From: an uncultured Candidatus Saccharibacteria bacterium | Lineage (GTDB): Bacteria; Patescibacteriota; Minisyncoccia; Phycocordibacterales; DATDWN01 | Assembly: GCA_964551495.1 (NCBI GenBank) | Contig: CAZKCA010000002.1 | Coordinates: 19,648 to 83,647, forward strand | Direction of reading: 5' to 3' | DNA: 64,000 nt | Part shown: positions 3,265-57,238 of the stretch, one piece after another | How the letters are laid out: every line of letters begins with the position of its first letter | Numbering within the stretch: position 1 is the stretch's first letter | Made by a program: the position numbers and the translations under genes | Notes under the pieces: model-generated | Seen by the model: only the letters and a program-made list of their open reading frames with translations | The model's database searches: none | What the model was told of the DNA's origin: nothing

Positions 3265-4491
3265 ATGGATAAATTAATTTCTAATAAAAAGCATTTAACA
3301 GTTGGACTCCTTATTATATTAGGAGTGTTTTTTTCTGGATTTTTTATAGGTAAAGCCAATCAGTCTGATAAAAGTAAAATACTAAATGTAACAAACAAGG
3401 ATCCGGAAGGTAATGTTTCTGTTGATTTTTCTCCATTTTGGAAAGCTTGGAATACTATAAATGAAAAATATATACCTACTTCTACTACAACTTCTGAAAT
3501 AGATGATCAAAAAAGACTTTATGGTGCTATAGCTGGTATGACAAAAGCATTGGGTGACCCGTATACTGTATTTTTCCCACCAGTTGAGTCAAAAAGTTTT
3601 GAAGAAGAAATAAGTGGAAACTTTGAAGGGGTTGGAATGGAAATTGGTATAAGAGATGGTGTTTTGACTGTTGTAGCGCCACTTAAAAACACTCCAGCCT
3701 ATAGAGCAGGTATCCTTTCTGGTGATAAAATAATACAAATCAACAACGTTTCCACAAATGATCTAAGTACAGAAGAAGCTGTCTCTATGATAAGAGGTAA
3801 AAGAGGAACAGAGGTTGAATTTACAATGCTAAGAGACGGAGAGGAAGAACCTATTAAAATAAAAGTTATAAGAGATGTTATAGATATTCCTACTATAGAT
3901 ACAGAAATAAAAGGTGATGTTTTTATAATCAGACTTTATAATTTTTCAGCTATTTCACAAAATCTTTTCAGGCAAGCACTACGAGAATTCGTAGAGTCTG
4001 GAAGGTATAAGTTGGTATTGGATTTGAGGGGAAATCCTGGTGGATATTTGGAGGCATCTATAGATATGGCTAGCTGGTTTTTACCACCAGGAAAAGTAGT
4101 GGTTAAAGAAGATTTTAAAGATATATCAAAAAACCAGTCTTTTAGAAGTAAAGGGTATAATATTTTTAATGATTCTTTGAAGATGGTCATTTTGATAGAT
4201 GGTGGTTCTGCTTCAGCTTCTGAAATATTAGCAGGTGCTTTAAATGAACATGGTGTAGCAAAACTTATAGGAACCAAATCTTTTGGAAAAGGATCTGTTC
4301 AAGAGTTGGTAAAAATAACAGACGATACTTCACTAAAAATTACAGTGGCTAGATGGCTTACTCCAAATGGTCATTCTATATCAGATGGAGGATTAACTCC
4401 TGATATAGAAGTTGCTCTAGATATCGAGGCTTTTAAAGAAGGGAAAGATAATCAATTGGAAAAAGCCTTAGAATACTTAAAAGAGTTCTAG
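3265..4491 (+). CDS. S41 family carboxyl-terminal processing peptidase with PDZ domain
   Basis: 408 aa with an N-terminal TM anchor, a PDZ-like GDKIIQINNVSTNDLSTEEAVSMIRG and the S41 core GGSASASEILAGAL. Confidence 0.9.
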   Translation: MDKLISNKKHLTVGLLIILGVFFSGFFIGKANQSDKSKILNVTNKDPEGNVSVDFSPFWKAWNTINEKYIPTSTTTSEIDDQKRLYGAIAGMTKALGDPYTVFFPPVESKSFEEEISGNFEGVGMEIGIRDGVLTVVAPLKNTPAYRAGILSGDKIIQINNVSTNDLSTEEAVSMIRGKRGTEVEFTMLRDGEEEPIKIKVIRDVIDIPTIDTEIKGDVFIIRLYNFSAISQNLFRQALREFVESGRYKLVLDLRGNPGGYLEASIDMASWFLPPGKVVVKEDFKDISKNQSFRSKGYNIFNDSLKMVILIDGGSASASEILAGALNEHGVAKLIGTKSFGKGSVQELVKITDDTSLKITVARWLTPNGHSISDGGLTPDIEVALDIEAFKEGKDNQLEKALEYLKEF

Positions 4492-38612: not shown

Positions 38613-38640
38613 TTCTTCCCGCCCCTTGGGGCGGACAAAG

Positions 38641-38691
38641 AAATCCCATAATTTGGGCTTCCACGTGGAAGCTCCAGATTATGGGATTTTT
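38641..38691 (+). terminator. two-tier hairpin terminator after the beta-barrel gene
   Basis: AAATCCCATAAT...ATTATGGGATTT (12 bp) encloses the 16-nt palindrome GCTTCCACGTGGAAGC and is followed by a T-run. Additional hairpins lie at 38619-38634 and 38704-38724. Confidence 0.7.
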
Positions 38692-40663: not shown

Positions 40664-40766
40664 ATCTAGGATTTCCTACAAAAGCCACGGTAACCACCGC
40701 TGGCTTTTTCTTTTATCCAACTTCCAACTTTAGATCAAAATAATTCTAACAAAAAAATAATTGAGT

Positions 40767-40896
40767 TTAAATGAAATCTCGTTGAGGCACTGTATTTTTG
40801 GAGACTTCGCAAGCGCGACGGCGCGAGACCGAGCAAAATTTCAGCAGAAATTTATGCGTGCTCCAAAAATACAGTGCCGAGAAAGAGATTTCATTT
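40767..40896 (+). repeat. nested-hairpin palindromic element, family 1, copy A
   Basis: 13-bp outer stem (TAAATGAAATCTC/GAGATTTCATTTA), internal loop, 18-bp perfect middle stem (GGCACTGTATTTTTGGAG) and a 57-nt core ACTTCGCAAGCGCGACGGCGCGAGACCGAGCAAAATTTCAGCAGAAATTTATGCGTG. Confidence 0.85.
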
Positions 40897-40915
40897 ATCA
40901 AAAATTTAGTAATCC

Positions 40916-42829
40916 TTACTTCTGATCTTCATTCTTTTTTTCTTCAAACTCCGCATCCCTTACATTCCCCTCTTTATTCTCTTCTGCTTTATTCTCAGAA
41001 GAATTCTCTTGAGTTTGCTTGTTTAGGATTTCACCGATTTTTGATATTTCAGATGAAAGTGTTTCTGTGGCTTTCTTTATAGTTTCCAAATCTTCACCTT
41101 CTTTAGCTTTCTTCAAATCCGCTACTTTTGTTTCTATAGAAGTTTTTAGATCTGCTGGTACTTTATCTCCTGCATCTTTCAAAGACTTCTCAGATGTGTA
41201 TATAAGCTGTTCAGCCAAGTTTTTGACCTCTGCCAAGTCTTTCTTCTTTTTATCTTCTGTAGCATGAGCTTCTGCATCTTTTTGCATTTTCTCAATATCT
41301 TCTTTAGACAAACCAGAACGAGCCTCTATCCTGATGGATTGTTCTTTTCCTGTCGCTTTATCTTTTGCTTTAACAGAAAGAATTCCATTTGCATCTACAT
41401 CAAAAGTAACTTCAACTTGTGGCATACCACGAGGAGCTGGCGGAATACCGTCTAGGATAAATCTTCCAAGAGATTTGTTATCACTTGCCATTGCTCTTTC
41501 ACCTTGGACTATATGAATCTCTACAGAAGTTTGATTATCTGCTGCAGTAGAGAACACTTGAGATTTAGAAGCTGGGATTGTTGTATTTCTTTCAATAAGA
41601 TGTGTTGCAACTCCTCCCATTGTTTCTATACCAAGAGAAAGTGGAATAACATCCAAAAGCAAAACATCTTTGACGTCCCCTGACATAATACCCCCTTGAA
41701 TAGCAGCGCCTAGAGCAACAACTTCATCTGGGTTAATAGACTTGTTTGGTTCTTTTCCAAAATATTCTTTAACTCTTTCTACCATTTTTGGCATTCTTGT
41801 TTGTCCTCCAACCAGTATAACTTCATTTATATCACCCACAGAGAAGCCAGAAGCCTCCATAGCTCTCTTTGTGATAGACATAGCCCTATCTATGAATTCT
41901 TCTGTAAGTTCCTCTAATTTAGCCCTTGTAAGCTTTATAAGAAGGTGTTTTGGTCCAGAAGCGTCAGATGTAATGAAAGGAATATTTACCTCTGTCTCAA
42001 CTGCAGAAGAAAGCTCAATCTTTGCCTTCTCAGCTGCTTCATCTAACCTTTGCAAAGCCAAGTTATCAGATCTTAAATCAATTCCATTTTCTTTTTTAAA
42101 TTCATCAGCAAGGTAGTTTATTATTTTCTGATCAATATCTTTTCCTCCCAAGTGACTGTCTCCATCTGTAGATTTTACTTTGATATCTCCACCAACTTCG
42201 TCCACATCAACCTCCAAAACAGAAACATCAAAAGTTCCACCTCCAAAGTCAAAAACGACTATCTTTTCATCTTTTCTGTTTTTATCAAATCCATACGCAA
42301 GAGCCGCTGCAGTAGGTTCGTTTATAATTCTTTTTACATCTAGGCCAGCGATGGCTCCGGCGTCTTTTGTGGCTTGTCTTTGAGAGTCGTTAAAGTATGC
42401 GGGTACTGTAATAATCGCTTCTGTAACTTTTTCACCGATTTTAGCTTCAACATCTGCTTTGATTTTAGAAATAATCATGGCAGAAATTTCTTCCGGAGTA
42501 TATTCCTTATCATTCATTTTTACTTTTACTCCACCATTTGAAGCTTTTATCATTTCGTAAGGCACAATACCTTTATCTTTTTGGACTGGAGCATCTTCAA
42601 ATTGATGTCCGATAAATCTTTTTATTCCAAAAATTGTGTTTTTTGGATTTGTTACTGCTTGCCTTTTAGCCAAAAGGCCTACAAGTCTTTCTCCTGTTTT
42701 TGATACAGCAACAATAGAAGGGGTAGTTCTAGCGCCTTCTGCATTTTCCAATATTTTTGGCTGTCCAACTTCCATAACTGCCACAGCCGAGTTTGTTGTT
42801 CCAAGATCAATTCCAATTATTTTAGACAT
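40916..42829 (-). CDS. dnaK: molecular chaperone DnaK (Hsp70)
   Basis: [18 protein letters not shown] and the rest of a full-length Hsp70. 637 aa. Confidence 0.98.
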
Positions 42830-42849
42830 AGTTTTTAGATTAAGTTAGG

Positions 42850-42980
42850 AATCAATAAATCCTTGCCTTGCCATACCTTTTGTGGAGCACGCATAAATTT
42901 CTGCTGAAATTTTGCTCGGTCTCGTGCCGTCGCACTTGCGAAGTCTCCACAAAAGGTACGACTTCGACGTGATTTATTGA
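42850..42980 (-). repeat. nested-hairpin palindromic element, family 1, copy B (inverted relative to the other copies)
   Basis: The reverse complement carries the same core with a compensatory pair change (GCGC..GCGC becomes GTGC..GCAC). It has unique outer (ATCAATAAATC) and middle stems. It lies 21 nt upstream of the dnaK ATG. Confidence 0.85.
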
Positions 42981-43024
42981 TAACAAATTTTTAAGATCGA
43001 ATAATTTAAGTAGATAAATTAAAT

Positions 43025-43161
43025 AATTCAAAACATTCGCAGGTTTTTGGCTGAAATAAAAGCGAGAAGCGCCAGCCGGAGACACTGTCTGAGCGTAGCG
43101 AGTTTGGCGAGAGGCCAGCTTTGAGTGCTTTATTTCACAAAAACCGAGGACGTTTTGAATT
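43025..43161 (+). repeat. nested-hairpin palindromic element, family 2, copy 1
   Basis: Outer stem AATTCAAAAC/GTTTTGAATT. Conserved unpaired ATTCGCAGG and CCGAGGAC. Inner stem TTTTTG..TGAAATAAA(A)GC / GCTTTATTTCACAAAAA. GC-rich centre. Confidence 0.7.
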
Positions 43162-43169
43162 GTTTACAT

Positions 43170-43478
43170 TTAGCTGATCTTATAGGATGGAGCGCGAGGT
43201 TTTGAACCTAAGAAAGATAGAATATTAAAATCAAAATATGGAGAAAGTATTTTATGATCTTTTTCTTTTTCTACCTCAAACTCAAAATTATCTTTAAGTG
43301 TCTCAAGACACAAAACTTCTTTATTTTCCAAACTTTCATCTAAGTAAACCACATTTAAAAGTCTAGCTTTTACTCTCCCGGATTCTTGGTACACACAAAA
43401 AGAGGCCCTGACAAGTCTTCCATCCTTGTCCCTCAAAACTTTTTCTATTAGATTGCCTCTAGGAGTTGTTATTTTCAT
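43170..43478 (-). CDS. hypothetical protein
   Basis: ORF-track 43170..43490 begins at TTG, so I prefer ATG 43478 (MKITTPRGN). A TATAAT lies on the minus strand at 43500..43495. No family was recognised. Confidence 0.5.
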   Translation of the reverse strand: MKITTPRGNLIEKVLRDKDGRLVRASFCVYQESGRVKARLLNVVYLDESLENKEVLCLETLKDNFEFEVEKEKDHKILSPYFDFNILSFLGSKPRAPSYKIS

Positions 43479-43523
43479 AATAGTTAACAAGTAAATTATA
43501 CCAAAGACTTCCCTATTGTGTAG

Positions 43524-43552
43524 TTGATTATAATATCAAAATGTGATATAAT
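43524..43552 (+). promoter_or_regulatory. putative promoter of the 101-aa ORF
   Basis: TTGATT, 17 nt, TATAAT with an extended TG (TGATATAAT). GGAGG at 43560-43564. Confidence 0.5.
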
Positions 43553-43570
43553 TAATAATGGAGGTCCGAA

Positions 43571-43876
43571 ATGGCTCTGAAAAAGAGATTGAAAGATATT
43601 GAGGCTTTACTTGCAATTTTAACACAAGGTTGGAGTGATCAAAAAATATTCCAAGAATCTATACCTCAATATTCAGCTCTTGATGATACTCACGAGTACA
43701 CATTAAACTACGGGTGGGCAGGTATTATTAACAACTTAGCAAAGTTACTAGGTTTTGAACCTTATATCAAAAAAGCTCATGAACCAACCATCACTTCAAG
43801 CAAATTAGATTCTCTAATAAGTGAAGCAGAATGTTTTATTGATTTTTTTGAGGAGAATACCAAAAGCGGCCAATAG
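43571..43876 (+). CDS. hypothetical 101-aa protein
   Basis: Strong promoter and SD. It converges on grpE. No family was recognised. Confidence 0.55.
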   Translation: MALKKRLKDIEALLAILTQGWSDQKIFQESIPQYSALDDTHEYTLNYGWAGIINNLAKLLGFEPYIKKAHEPTITSSKLDSLISEAECFIDFFEENTKSGQ

Positions 43877-43885
43877 GTCGCTTTT

Positions 43886-44488
43886 CTATTTCTTAAACTC
43901 CCCTACTTTTACCTTTGGAGGACGAATTATTTTATCATTTAGTTTGTAACCAAGACTTAAGACTTCCACTACCTTATGGTCGTCTTCTTTTTTATCTACT
44001 TCTACATTTTCTATGGCTTCGTCTCTATTTGGATCAAAAATCTCTCCTATTGGATTTATTTGAGATACTCCATGATTTACTAAAACATTTAAAAGTTGTG
44101 AGTGAATATACTCTACTCCCACACGCCAGTTTTTATCTACTTTTTCCCAAGCTTCTTTATTTTTAAAGGCAGACTCAAAAGAGTCTAATACTGGAATAAG
44201 TTCATTTACAATATCTTCTTTAGCAAATTTTATAAAATTATCTCGTTCTGAAGCGTCTTGTTTTCTAGCATTTATAAAGTCAGCTTTGTCTCTTTGCCAA
44301 TTGTTCAAAAGGTCAGCTTTTTCTTTTTCAAGCTCTTTTATGCGCTTTTTAAGCTTTGCCAGTTTTGCATTTGCATCAACAGAAGTAACTTCTGTGTTTT
44401 CTTCAAACACAACATCATCAGAGTCAATTTCTGTTTCTTCTATCTCATCTTGAGATATCTCTTCTTCTTTTTTTAGATCGTCGTTCAT
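43886..44488 (-). CDS. grpE: nucleotide exchange factor GrpE
   Basis: Acidic N-terminus, coiled coil and C-terminal pattern VLDSFE...VGVEYIHSQLLNVL...GYKLNDKIIRPPKVKV. The ORF-track start at 44527 is TTG, so I prefer ATG 44488 (MNDDLKK). Confidence 0.9.
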   Translation of the reverse strand: MNDDLKKEEEISQDEIEETEIDSDDVVFEENTEVTSVDANAKLAKLKKRIKELEKEKADLLNNWQRDKADFINARKQDASERDNFIKFAKEDIVNELIPVLDSFESAFKNKEAWEKVDKNWRVGVEYIHSQLLNVLVNHGVSQINPIGEIFDPNRDEAIENVEVDKKEDDHKVVEVLSLGYKLNDKIIRPPKVKVGEFKK

Positions 44489-44527
44489 AGAAAGAATACT
44501 ACCAAAAGTTACTAAATTTTCAAACAA

Positions 44528-44649
44528 TTAAATCTTATTGAGGTATGGTATTTTTGGAGACTTCGCAAGCGCGACGGCGCGAGACCGAGCAAAATTTCAG
44601 CAGAAATTTATGCGTGCTCCAAAAATACTATACTGAAAAAGAGATTTAA
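44528..44649 (+). repeat. nested-hairpin palindromic element, family 1, copy C
   Basis: The core is identical to copy A. The stems are different but complementary (TTAAATCT/AGATTTAA and GGTATGGTATTTTTGGAG/CTCCAAAAATACTATACT, the latter with two G:T pairs). Confidence 0.85.
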
Positions 44650-44665
44650 TGATAAATATAAACCA

Positions 44666-44687
44666 AAAATCTCCCGAAGGAGATTTT
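44666..44687 (-). terminator. rho-independent terminator, probably the ancestral rpsI terminator
   Basis: AAAATCTCC-cgaa-GGAGATTTT, 4 nt downstream of the relic rpsI stop. Confidence 0.7.
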
Positions 44688-44691
44688 TTAA

Positions 44692-44718
44692 TTAACGTTT
44701 TGACCACTGTGGAGCCTT
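44692..44718 (-). pseudogene. relic duplicate of the rpsI 3' end (KAPQWSKR + stop)
   Basis: The minus strand reads AAG GCT CCA CAG TGG TCA AAA CGT TAA. The live gene end is AAG GCT CCA CAG TGG AGT AAG AGA TAG (44836..44810). The first 15 nt are identical and the remaining codons, including the stop, differ only by synonymous changes. Confidence 0.55.
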
Positions 44719-44809
44719 ATTGCCGAAGCACTGAAGCAAAGCTTAGTACTCGACTGCGGAAGACTAACGTAATTTGAAATAATTACAGACTACCGAATAG
44801 ACAGTAAAA

Positions 44810-45208
44810 CTATCTCTTACTCCACTGTGGAGCCTTTCTTGCCTTCTTTAGACCGAATTTTCTTCTCTCTTTCATTCTTCCATCTCTCTTTAGAAAACCT
44901 TCTCCTTTTAGAGTTTTTCTAAAATCTGCATTAAATTTAACGATGGCTCTTGCTATACCGTGTCTTAGTGCCTCTGATTGTGAGTGAATACCCCCACCTA
45001 CTATTTTGGCTGTTATTTTAAATCTTTCATCTACTTTTGTAAGAGGCATTTTAGAGATAAGTTCCATCTCACTTGTAGGAAAATAGTCTTTTATATCTTT
45101 ATCATTTACTGAAATGGTTGTTTTTGAAGAAGGAGAAATTCTAACTCTGGCAACAGATGTCTTTCTTCTTCCAACGGCTCCTGTATATTTTGTATTTTTA
45201 TCTTCCAT
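44810..45208 (-). CDS. rpsI: 30S ribosomal protein S9
   Basis: GGGIHSQSEALRHGIARA...RDGRMKERRKFGLKKARKAPQWSKR. Confidence 0.95.
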   Translation of the reverse strand: MEDKNTKYTGAVGRRKTSVARVRISPSSKTTISVNDKDIKDYFPTSEMELISKMPLTKVDERFKITAKIVGGGIHSQSEALRHGIARAIVKFNADFRKTLKGEGFLKRDGRMKERRKFGLKKARKAPQWSKR

Positions 45209-53369: not shown

Positions 53370-53491
53370 AAACAAACTCGTTGAGTTGATATGATTTTGG
53401 AGACTTCGCAGTCGGGTAGACGAGACCGAGCGATTTTTCAGCAGAAAAATACGCGTGCTCCAAAATTATATCAATGAAAAAGAGTTTGTTT
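53370..53491 (+). repeat. nested-hairpin palindromic element, family 1, copy D
   Basis: Outer stem AAACAAACTC/GAGTTTGTTT, loop GTTGAG, middle stem TTGATATGATTTTGGAG/CTCCAAAATTATATCAA (one G:T). The core is diverged, with the hairpin ATTTTTC-AGCA-GAAAAAT. Confidence 0.8.
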
Positions 53492-56029: not shown

Positions 56030-57238
56030 TTAAATTATAGTTTCCATTATTCCTCCTCCGAGACATTTTTCTCCTTGGTAGAATACAGCGGACTGACCTT
56101 TTGCTACTCCATTTTGGGGTTTTTCAAAAGAGATTTTATAACCTAATTCTAACTTTTCTACCTTACAATTTTGTTTTTCTTGTCTGTATCTTATCCTAAC
56201 CTGACAATTTAAAGGAAATTCTGGCTCTACCCCATCTATAAAATGAATATCTTTTATAAAAATCTCTTTTGTATTGAAAACTAAATCTAGCTGATTTTCT
56301 TTGTCTGCTACAGTTATAGTATTTTTTTCTAGGTCTTTTGACACAACAAAAAAACTTGGGTCATTTGGAGTCTTTTTGGTAATAGTAAATCCATGTCTTT
56401 GACCTATGGTATAAAACAGTGCCCCATCGTGAATCCCAACAACCTCTCCTTTGGAATTTAAAACATCTCCTTTTTTAGTTTCAATGAAGTGTTCAAGAAA
56501 ATCTTTCATATCTACTTTTCCAATAAAACAAAGTCCTTGGCTATCTTTTTTTGTGGCCGTAGGAAGACTAAACTTCTCTGCCAGTTTTCTAACTTCTGGT
56601 TTTGTTAAGTGTCCTACAGGGAAAAGTGTTTTTGAAAGCTGTTCTTGGTTTAAAGTGTAAAGAAAATAACTTTGATCTTTATTTTTATCATTTGATTCAT
56701 GAAGTTCAAACCTATAGTTTGATAAATCTTGTTGAGACAAGAGGTTTCTGAAACATTGCGAGCGCGACGGCGCGAACACGAGGAATTTTTCAGCAGAAAA
56801 ATATCCGTTTTCAGAAACCTCTTGAGGAGAAAGAGATTTATCAAATACCAAATTCTGAGCATAGTGTCCTGTGGCTATAAAATCAGCCCCCATCTCTTTG
56901 GCTTTATCTAGAAAAACTCCAAATTTTACATACTTATTACAAAAAACATCTGGATTTGGAGTCCTACCGGCTTTGTATTCAGAAATCATATAGTCAACTA
57001 CTTCTTTTTTATATTCCTTCTCACAATCAATAGTTAAAAATGGGACATCCAAAATGGCACAAACTCTCATAGCACTTCTCCTTTCTTCTTTCCAGTCACA
57101 AGGTAAAAACTCTGGATGCCAAACTTTTAGAAAAACCCCCATGACGTCAAAACCGGCTTCTTTAAGCAAAGCCAAAGAGACAGAAGAGTCCACTCCGCCT
57201 GATAGACCAACAAAAACCTTTGGCTTTCTATTTTCCAT
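56030..57238 (-). CDS. mnmA: tRNA 2-thiouridine(34) synthase MnmA, carrying a ~37-40 codon in-frame insert derived from a palindromic element
   Basis: VGLSGGVDSSV PP-loop, ATGHYAQ, KDQSYFLY and GLCFIGK. There are 58 residues between ATGHYAQ and KDQSYFL, whereas my recollection of characterised MnmA proteins is ~20. A TATAAA lies 7 nt upstream of the ATG. Confidence 0.95.
   Translation of the reverse strand: MENRKPKVFVGLSGGVDSSVSLALLKEAGFDVMGVFLKVWHPEFLPCDWKEERRSAMRVCAILDVPFLTIDCEKEYKKEVVDYMISEYKAGRTPNPDVFCNKYVKFGVFLDKAKEMGADFIATGHYAQNLVFDKSLSPQEVSENGYFSAEKFLVFAPSRSQCFRNLLSQQDLSNYRFELHESNDKNKDQSYFLYTLNQEQLSKTLFPVGHLTKPEVRKLAEKFSLPTATKKDSQGLCFIGKVDMKDFLEHFIETKKGDVLNSKGEVVGIHDGALFYTIGQRHGFTITKKTPNDPSFFVVSKDLEKNTITVADKENQLDLVFNTKEIFIKDIHFIDGVEPEFPLNCQVRIRYRQEKQNCKVEKLELGYKISFEKPQNGVAKGQSAVFYQGEKCLGGGIMETII
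56720..56841 (+). repeat. nested-hairpin palindromic element, family 1, copy E, located inside the mnmA coding sequence
   Basis: Outer stem GATAAATCT/AGATTTATC, loop GTTGAG, middle stem CAAGAGGTTTCTGAAA/TTTCAGAAACCTCTTG. The core is CATTGCGAGCGCGACGGCGCGAACACGAGGAATTTTTCAGCAGAAAAATATCCG. Confidence 0.78.

Follow-up and report, generated by a model that had tools for sequence, protein, structure and literature searches.

A family of structured, hairpin-borne repeats in Patescibacteria with copies in spacers and in frame within housekeeping genes

Introduction

ERIC, Correia/NEMIS, BOX and RUP are transposable elements of the miniature inverted-repeat class (MITEs) of bacteria that fold as RNA hairpins. 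Classical MITEs have conserved terminal inverted repeats (TIRs) that match the transposase of an insertion sequence (IS), together with clear target duplications. Repetitive extragenic palindromic sequences (REPs) are simple hairpins of 20–40 nucleotides (nt) with a conserved 5′ tetranucleotide, clustered near the gene of a REP-associated tyrosine transposase (RAYT), and IS200/IS605-type enzymes such as that of IS608 use the lagging-strand template. The attC sites of integrons possess paired R''(RYYYAAC) and R'(GTTRRRY) core sites at their ends and stand in cassette arrays. Patescibacteria have some of the smallest and most streamlined bacterial genomes. The Rickettsia palindromic elements (RPEs) are palindromic repeats of 100–150 nt in a reduced genome, with many copies in frame within open reading frames (ORFs) (Ogata et al., 2000, summarised in PMC10969869). 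Here we analyse a hairpin element with five copies, A to E, in a 64,000-nt stretch (the window) of an uncultured bacterium of the Patescibacteria labelled Candidatus Saccharibacteria (contig CAZKCA010000002.1, positions 19,648 to 83,647). The five copies belong to a family of repeats of 90–130 nt that is large, restricted to the phylum and apparently undescribed; its members, in Patescibacteria of the Paceibacteria type, are non-coding and non-autonomous.

Results

Family size and host range

A pattern over 22 core positions matched the window at the five copy sites only and did not match any of 100 window shuffles. A covariance model run over the whole window with filters off returned exactly five matches (Table 1), scoring 71.6–90.2 bits on the strand named there and at most 17 bits on the opposite strand. 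An earlier note on this DNA, made from the sequence alone, had listed the five copies with their positions, orientations and, for A, B and C, their distances to the dnaK stop, dnaK ATG and grpE ATG. Reading of the sequence, the core pattern and the covariance model all agree with this list. Searches beyond the window, which the note had proposed, also uncovered a large family.

Species-representative genomes were searched with the pattern CGAG-N5-TTTCAGCAGAAA-N2-TAY-N-CGT, which is carried by at least 118 loci (referred to by L numbers). Among the matches listed, nearly all are Patescibacteria metagenome-assembled genomes (MAGs) of the Paceibacteria/Parcubacteria type, with Nomura-, Taylor-, Yonath-, Zambryskii-, Kaiser-, Wildermuth-, Nealson- and Moraniibacteria and 'Minisyncoccia' represented; many are automatic submissions labelled Saccharibacteria, and two bear other labels. 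The window itself, judged by its MnmA and GrpE relatives, comes from a Paceibacterota MAG. A covariance model built from 76 family copies (R1) found 131 copies in the first 100 loci. It also finds diverged members outside the search pattern, with AGUA, AACA or UAGCAA as the P3 loop or with GC-rich P3 stems (helices are named below). The family pattern had no match in the viral contigs scanned, and a metagenome scan with the exact type-1 core had none either; a looser pattern yielded three useful metagenome loci.

The element did not correspond to any Rfam family. Rfam 15 at gathering thresholds gave no match in the window, and at E ≤ 10 over positions 40700–44750 it returned only noise, the best being mir-586 with 25 bits against a threshold of 89. 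In 16 related loci the Rfam matches were confined to tRNA and small-subunit rRNA. The expectation of the earlier note, which had asked for this comparison, was therefore correct in the window and in these loci. A full-text literature search for structured repeats in Patescibacteria or the Candidate Phyla Radiation found none described, although its coverage was incomplete and absence is no proof.

A conserved three-way junction under selection on one strand

The family fold is built around a GC-rich three-way junction, itself conserved, that is closed by one long and variable helix (P1) and bears two further helices, P2 and P3. P1 has 15–30 base pairs (bp), of which the apical part is conserved within a genome and the basal 8–14 bp are specific to each copy, and is followed by a 3-nt junction with the consensus ACU. 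P2 has the form UGC-GA-GCGC-loop-GCGC-GA-GCA, in which tandem G.A/A.G pairs separate a 3-bp from a 4-bp helix. The 3-bp helix UGC/GCA covaries with AGC/GCU, UGU/ACA and AGA/UCU, while the 4-bp helix occurs in at least nine different sequences. P3 possesses a conserved CGAG/CGU base, an AGCA loop and a helix of 10–12 bp; in its 10-bp form GGAAUUUUUC covaries with GCAAAUUUUC or GCGAUUUUUC. The subfamily that includes the window copies has an extra outer stem (AAAUCUC/GAGAUUU) and a conserved, purine-rich internal loop (GUUGAG / CGAGAAA), and another subfamily carries AAGCGAG ... CGAGCG at the base of P1. A hammerhead-like structure was considered and rejected, since its would-be core positions covary as a helix. 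At L010 (3971-4148), L016, L020, L053 and L090, extra hairpins or a whole second module are nested inside the P2 loop, and stretches of 2–8 kb in L019, L039 and L081 contain several modules, either nested or in tandem.

In the fold of every window copy, an outer stem leads through an asymmetric internal loop to a long stem and then a branched core, with z-scores of −6.4 to −11.6, and this nested architecture is the one that had been described for all five. In copy A the outer stem AAATGAAATCTC/GAGATTTCATTT and the internal loop GTTGAG / CGAGAAA lead into P1 and the three-way-junction core. As had also been seen, the cores of A and C are identical and that of B differs by the paired change of GCGC/GCGC to GUGC/GCAC. 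Copy D represents a second core variant (P2 UCGGGUAGACGA, P3 GCGAUUUUUC/GAAAAAUACGC), and the core of copy E is the family consensus.

Covariation was assessed in 76 sequences. Standard pairs fill 89.2% of the cells, compared with 34–57% when the 3′ partners are slid by 1–3 columns. Double-sided changes occupy 607 cells vs 128–238 in the slid controls, the covariation score is 0.52 vs at most 0.15 in controls, and none of 500 shuffles reached the observed covariation values. Because the retrieval pattern dictated the 3′ half of the core, no weight can be placed on the invariance of that half; the 5′ half and every helix escape this bias.

The strands of the element are not equivalent. Across the long stems of 78 copies, G.U pairs outnumber single A.C mismatches by 134 to 12 in the sense fold and by 40 to 34 in the antisense fold. 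The sense strand is the more stable in 74 of these copies, and its advantage holds too in copies that lie antisense to a host ORF. In the window the strand of the ACTTCGCA orientation gives the more stable fold in all five cases. This bias, together with its persistence in the ORF-antisense copies, indicates selection on one strand and points to an element that matters as a single strand of fixed polarity, be it RNA or DNA. The claim of a structured family with compensatory changes and strand-specific G.U pairs, originally drawn from five copies, holds across 76–78. In 55 of the 78 copies it is the C-rich strand that carries the sense orientation (p = 4e-4), a moderate bias whose counts are inflated by orthologous copies. 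With the same inflation, 36 copies run opposite to the local genes and 20 run with them.

Table 1. Copies of the element in the window, with covariance model matches and gene context.
Feature	Positions	Strand	Model match	Score (bits)	Context
Copy A	40767..40896	+	40786-40878	90.2	19 nt after dnaK stop, antisense to dnaK
Copy B	42850..42980	-	42870-42962	86.9	Spacer between small ORF and dnaK, sense; ends 20 nt before dnaK ATG
Copy C, hairpin	44528-44649	+	44542-44634	86.3	Ends 39 nt before the real grpE ATG
Copy C, full inserted segment	44522..44659	+			138 nt, from empty-site comparison
Copy D	53370..53491	+	53385-53475	71.6	Between a 140-aa ORF and alaS
Copy E	56720..56841	+	56736-56826	81.4	Inside mnmA 56030..57238(-), antisense, in frame

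Copies inside protein-coding genes

About one fifth of the pattern matches lie within long ORFs. Some 15 clear in-gene copies (copy E counted or not) are all in frame and free of stop codons; they occur in both orientations, and half are antisense to the mRNA. Pfam confirmed as hosts TsaD, PheT, ArgS, MiaA, Dus, a class-V aminotransferase (IscS-like), UvrD, a phosphohexomutase (PGM-like) and ComEC, and the MnmA host of copy E was identified separately via homologs. One insertion site in TsaD is shared by at least six genomes and one in PheT, between the core and the FDX-ACB domains, by five. The ArgS copy is located at the DALR domain.

Sense copies are nearly always read in the frame that gives ..RLGSATARARGIFQQKNIR.., and antisense copies give ..HGYFSAEKFLVLAPSRSQ.. 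or ..TDIFLLKNSSCS... The predicted insert peptides include ..GYFSAEKFLV.. in MnmA and PheT and ..ATARARGIFQQK.. in TsaD. The consensus core is open in five of the six frames, and 4% of shuffles do as well. Hairpins were also removed in silico and ORFs that open only afterwards were sought; no split gene was found, and removal gave only fusions of neighbouring genes, e.g. SecY–Adk, FtsZ–TrxB and DnaB–RecR.

Copy E is not intergenic, and its in-frame placement had been missed. It sits within the 402-codon mnmA ORF, where it accounts for 41 extra MnmA residues, 133–173 (DKSLSPQEVSENGYFSAEKFLVFAPSRSQCFRNLLSQQDLS); most MnmA homologs have 356–365 residues and an empty insert site. In an AlphaFold model, which rests on a shallow alignment, the insert is a low-confidence loop between two strands (predicted local distance difference test below 50 for residues 138–169). 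From their in-frame, stop-free state and the modelled loop in MnmA, the in-gene copies are best read as translated insertions of the kind formed by RPEs, and not as introns or bypass elements.

The same MnmA loop, which follows ATGHYA, contains unrelated inserts of 20–50 residues in many lineages (homologs P0005, P0007, P0011, P0017, P0019, P0022, P0071 and P0111, with more inserts elsewhere in P0071 and P0111). These unrelated inserts in more distant homologs are palindromic too. In-frame palindromic insertions seem to be widespread in Patescibacteria and to belong to several element families.

Gain, loss and core exchange between relatives

Syntenic DNA of relatives was obtained via MnmA and GrpE homologs and via the looser metagenome pattern. 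The comparison of orthologous regions, likewise suggested by the earlier note, showed that the set of occupied sites varies between close relatives. The site of copy E is filled in L121 (MnmA 88% identical), where P2 carries the compensatory change of GCGC/GCGC to GCUC/GAGC. In L119 an exact 90-nt deletion between TTGAG repeats has left the outer hairpin, with GATAAATCTTGTTGAG joined to GAGAAAGAGATTTATC, and L120 retains a decayed remnant. Copy D is absent from the orthologous spacer upstream of alaS in L120 and L121. Copy C has an ortholog in L128 and is missing from L122 and L123; L123 offers a clean empty site in which ...TTTTTGGTTT abuts GAAAATTT... and the whole 138-nt segment is lacking. 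In the window this copy is flanked by a 4-nt direct repeat, AAAC, at 44522-44525 and 44660-44663 (AAAC/GTTT). The ortholog of copy A in L124, at 3373-3463(-), has no counterpart in L122 and L125.

Cores and scaffolds have separate histories. In L124 the outer stem and P1 of copy A are almost identical to those of the window, while the core is the variant of window copy D. Copy B has a partial ortholog in L128, with the same scaffold and another P2 variant; in L122 and L124 its place before dnaK is taken by a similar hairpin scaffold with an unrelated core of ~95 nt. These two elements, at ~7180-7400 in L122 and ~1230-1400 in L124, share the apical scaffold TTTTTGGAA/TTCCAAAAA and the core ..AACTCCAGCGAGTTT.., which is oppositely oriented in the two genomes and has therefore been flipped between its inverted arms. 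L128 carries an additional copy that resembles A (87% identity, scaffold included) and stands between the grpE stop and its terminator, where the window is empty; its insertion junction shows no clear direct repeat. The P2 form GCGC-GACG-GCGC has spread to A, B and C in the window lineage, and the A and B orthologs of relatives carry a GGGUAG form. Thus, whole hairpins are gained and lost, and dispersed copies replace one another's cores, wholly or in part (e.g. P2). The pairing of one and the same core with dissimilar stems reflects this homogenisation between copies by gene conversion.

A picture of stems as the fast-changing parts around a fixed RNA gene does not stand: orthologous scaffolds carry different cores, and the empty sites and the L128 insertion show that the outer stem and internal loop travel with the element. 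Two further models of the stems were rejected. For window-type copies, P1 arms copied from flanking target DNA are contradicted by the lack of extra arms within 400 nt and by the absence of the whole hairpin at empty sites. Insertion into pre-existing solo outer hairpins was dismissed since such a hairpin was seen only in the L119 deletion product.

The dnaK operon

Copies A, B and C bracket grpE-dnaK-dnaJ in the window, which raised the question of a special tie to this operon. In the syntenic operons of four relatives, the covariance model found only the copy A ortholog, in the single genome L124; a fifth relative found later, L128, has kept the C ortholog and part of the B ortholog. With copies absent or replaced in relatives and the family present in many unrelated spacers and housekeeping ORFs, such a tie is not supported. 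A heat-shock regulatory role is not supported by these comparisons, because the copies are not conserved with the operon.

Copy C stands between the S9 terminator hairpin (44665-44688) and a conserved promoter-like sequence of grpE, TTGAAA-16-TAGTAT (44523-44496), a position in which it is probably poorly transcribed or lies in an untranscribed gap. Of 61 intergenic copies, 4 run directly into a T-tract, where the background rate is 10%. Without such enrichment the hairpins are not general intrinsic (rho-independent) terminators, and this candidate was rejected.

The operon region has further features of its own. Between grpE and dnaK, all relatives share a conserved ORF of ~100 residues that has no Pfam match (window 43170-43490 (-); L122 6720-7019; L124 909-1217; L125 7095-7394). 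A conserved promoter-like TACACA-16-TATAAT precedes this ORF, which makes co-transcription of dnaK with it probable. A second, different nested hairpin, with arms TAAACAATTCAAAACG.../...CGAATGTTTTGAATTATTTA and a GC-rich core, lies between this ORF and copy B (43020-43166 (-)). Its place is taken in L128 by a diverged family member (39.8 bits; P3 CUAGCCC-AGCA-GGGCUAG) and in L122 by yet another palindromic element. At 44692-44830 (-) the 3′ end of S9 is duplicated around an insertion of ~118 nt, in the order CCACAGTGG-AGTAAGAGATAG, 97 nt, CCACAGTGG-TCAAAACGTTAA. In the first S9 copy, the C-terminus SKR* is regained through different codons; the second resembles that of relatives and keeps the terminator. 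L128 and L123 lack the insertion. A small nested hairpin, AAATCCCATAATTTGG-GCTTCCACGTGGAAGC-CCAGATTATGGGATTT, occupies an intergenic site at 38639-38691 and is a hairpin-only model match of 15 bits.

Relatives linked to tRNA genes

A second class of relatives has a short P1 and the form GAAAG-CCGGAG-P2-GAGGCGGGGUC-P3-GUGACC. Members are found 40–75 nt downstream of tRNA genes in L033, L094, L082, L108, L072, L087 and L080. They are followed by a direct repeat of the last ~21 nt of that tRNA (positions 56-76, from the T-loop to CCA), to which their 5′ arm is complementary. Short-P1 modules also occur at L032 4050-4320 and L085 5560-5740, and some interrupt tRNA-Glu copies in the D and anticodon loops. 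In L032 two modules lie in one tRNA-Glu copy, beside an intact tRNA-Glu.

Discussion

We consider the family to be, with fair probability, a selfish structured repeat, RPE-like and non-autonomous, whose active form is a single strand. Whole units would insert into AT-rich spacers and also into permissive surface loops of housekeeping proteins, where only in-frame, stop-free copies would survive and be translated. Loss would proceed by precise deletion between direct repeats of a few nucleotides at the hairpin base. Short-patch gene conversion, with the P1 arms as homology, would swap cores between dispersed copies and could also flip a core. The fold would matter since the element may be recognised or propagated as a single strand, RNA or single-stranded DNA (ssDNA), of the ACUUGCGAG sense. 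The junction may then be the recognition or active part of the single-stranded intermediate and the long helix its handle, with a trans-acting enzyme, the host's or the element's own, moving the copies. Effects on expression of the dnaK operon would be incidental.

Several observations weigh against a selfish repeat. Enzymes that modify or charge tRNA make up 6–7 of 10 independent host genes, which random selfish spread does not predict. The tRNA-linked hosts are TsaD, PheT, MnmA, ArgS, MiaA, Dus and the IscS-like protein (loci L101, L097, L093, L089, L069, L090 and window copy E), and their proportion is far above the share of such enzymes in a small genome. In orthologous copies of TsaD and PheT the core is 92–94% identical vs 57–62% in the coding DNA around it; the search pattern had set half of these core positions, and such conservation could equally mean a function at the level of the host. 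Neither a transposase nor a reverse transcriptase nor any autonomous partner was seen in the window or in ~125 loci, and these loci did not contain an autonomous version with ends 0.2–4 kb apart enclosing an ORF. Target-site duplications are only 3–5 nt long and come from two or three junctions. Moreover, selection on one strand is hard to square with insertion in both orientations and with the probably untranscribed gap in which copy C lies.

Tentatively, the junction may instead be the active module of a new Patescibacteria mobility system, a hairpin-borne RNA or ssDNA cassette, or else a multi-copy RNA tied to tRNA metabolism. Copies of the cassette might enter hairpin loops, spacers, permissive codons and tRNA loops and be exchanged from scaffold to scaffold, and the cassette might be RNA-mediated and tRNA-linked or itself catalytic. 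The tie to tRNA metabolism is suggested by the preponderance of tRNA enzymes among the hosts.

It is rather unlikely that the family is a structured RNA of benefit to the host, whether a multi-copy small RNA or a cis element of mRNAs (for processing, stabilisation or protein binding), with the dnaK copies tuning heat-shock genes. The RNA-type covariation, tandem G.A pairs and strand-specific G.U pairs would suit such an RNA, as would the compensatory P2 changes in orthologous copies, a core far more conserved than the host coding sequence at the orthologous TsaD and PheT sites, and copy B in the 5′ leader of dnaK in sense. However, copies occur in both orientations within ORFs and operons and run against the local genes more often than with them (36 vs 20), copy C is placed between a terminator and a promoter, and close relatives lack the dnaK-operon copies or have replaced them. 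Neither a conserved promoter in or beside the element nor T-tract enrichment was found, and the copy number differs sharply among near relatives.

Movement of an ssDNA hairpin in trans by an HUH/Y1-type enzyme, as for REP/RAYT or IS200/IS605-like elements, would make the junction a protein recognition site on one strand. The restriction of selection to one strand, the orientation bias in GC skew (55/78, p = 4e-4), the insertion of whole hairpins with very short direct repeats and the excision-like precise loss are all in keeping with it. We nevertheless judge this unlikely, as the favoured strand is C-rich and thus the leading-strand template and not the lagging-strand one of IS200/IS605-type enzymes, orthologous copies inflate the skew test, and the element is much larger and more branched than REPs or the end hairpins of IS608. 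No Y1 or RAYT gene was seen in the loci inspected, for which no whole-genome protein-family scan was made.

An RNA-mediated retro-element similar to short interspersed nuclear elements, with the junction RNA templating a reverse transcriptase and the tRNA-linked relatives as source genes, appears distinctly improbable. It would account for the short-P1 relatives that follow tRNA genes and precede a copy of tRNA positions 56–76, for those that interrupt tRNA-Glu copies in the D and anticodon loops, and for a tolerance of G.U pairs that is typical of RNA; Patescibacteria also carry retroelement genes, and bAvd was seen in L120. Against this, no reverse transcriptase lies beside any copy, poly-A and variable 5′ truncations are lacking, short direct repeats suit DNA transposition equally, and the tRNA-end repeats could reflect target restoration of the integrase type. 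Finally, a miniature intron excised from the host mRNA, or a bypass element skipped during its translation, might be imagined from the conserved sites in conserved genes of many species and from a GC-rich structured insert in an AT-rich genome, reminiscent of yeast mitochondrial bypass elements, but is scarcely credible and is contradicted by the frame analysis: split genes would be expected and none was found, the ~15 clear in-gene copies are all in frame without stops, half of them are antisense to the mRNA, and partial deletions are in frame too.

In favouring a selfish RPE-like repeat, we note what it means for its hosts. Their genomes are streamlined, yet many carry dozens of structured copies, including copies in the essential genes tsaD, pheT, mnmA and argS. 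When they go unrecognised, in-frame inserts and GC-rich hairpins have a bearing on the calling of genes, the alignment of protein families and the assembly of MAGs in the phylum.

Among known systems, the family shares with ERIC-like MITEs its short, non-autonomous, dispersed state, its stable hairpins, its presence/absence polymorphism between strains and its frequent co-transcription with neighbours. Unlike in MITEs, the ends are the least conserved part and the centre the most, no parent IS was found in ~125 loci, and in place of conserved TIRs shared with an IS, variability is highest in the outer stems and basal P1. Flanking repeats were AAAC around copy C, TTGAG around the 90-nt unit lost in L119, and none clear at the L128 junction. 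The earlier preference for a hairpin-dependent element over a TIR-defined MITE was therefore well placed. Recognition of a folded single strand, as in REPs, bacterial interspersed mosaic elements and IS200/IS605 derivatives, would explain the strand-specific G.T(U) pairs; in contrast to REP/RAYT systems, the element is larger and branched, neither a conserved 5′ tetranucleotide nor clustering near a RAYT gene was seen, and its orientation bias falls on the opposite replication strand. Integron attC sites were rejected as a model: GTTGAG at the 5′ end has no inverse core at the other end (GAGAAAG), and the context is one of housekeeping operons. The GC clusters and byp elements of yeast mitochondria are also mobile GC-rich hairpins that invade the coding regions of an AT-rich genome. 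Ribosomes reportedly skip byps, which need not keep the frame, whereas every in-gene copy here is in frame and open.

RPEs are the closest known system in behaviour; membership is not claimed, because the host phylum differs. The Patescibacteria family differs from them in its conserved GC-rich three-way junction, extensive covariation and copy-specific closing helix, in ORF copies of both orientations (peptides ..ATARARGIFQQKNIR.. or ..GYFSAEKFLVLAPSRSQ..), in the exchange of cores between copies and in relatives embedded in tRNA genes. What both have in common is a palindromic repeat of similar length (100–150 nt vs 90–130 nt here) in reduced genomes. About a fifth to half of the copies lie in frame within housekeeping ORFs that are unrelated to one another, where they encode a peptide that recurs in a permissive part of the protein, and several families coexist. 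The defining traits of RPEs, a palindromic repeat with many in-frame ORF copies, are thus found here as well, as a resemblance in behaviour. The family would represent a second, independent and far better resolved case of selfish DNA in protein genes after Rickettsia, with a core that can be modelled, searched for and tested biochemically.

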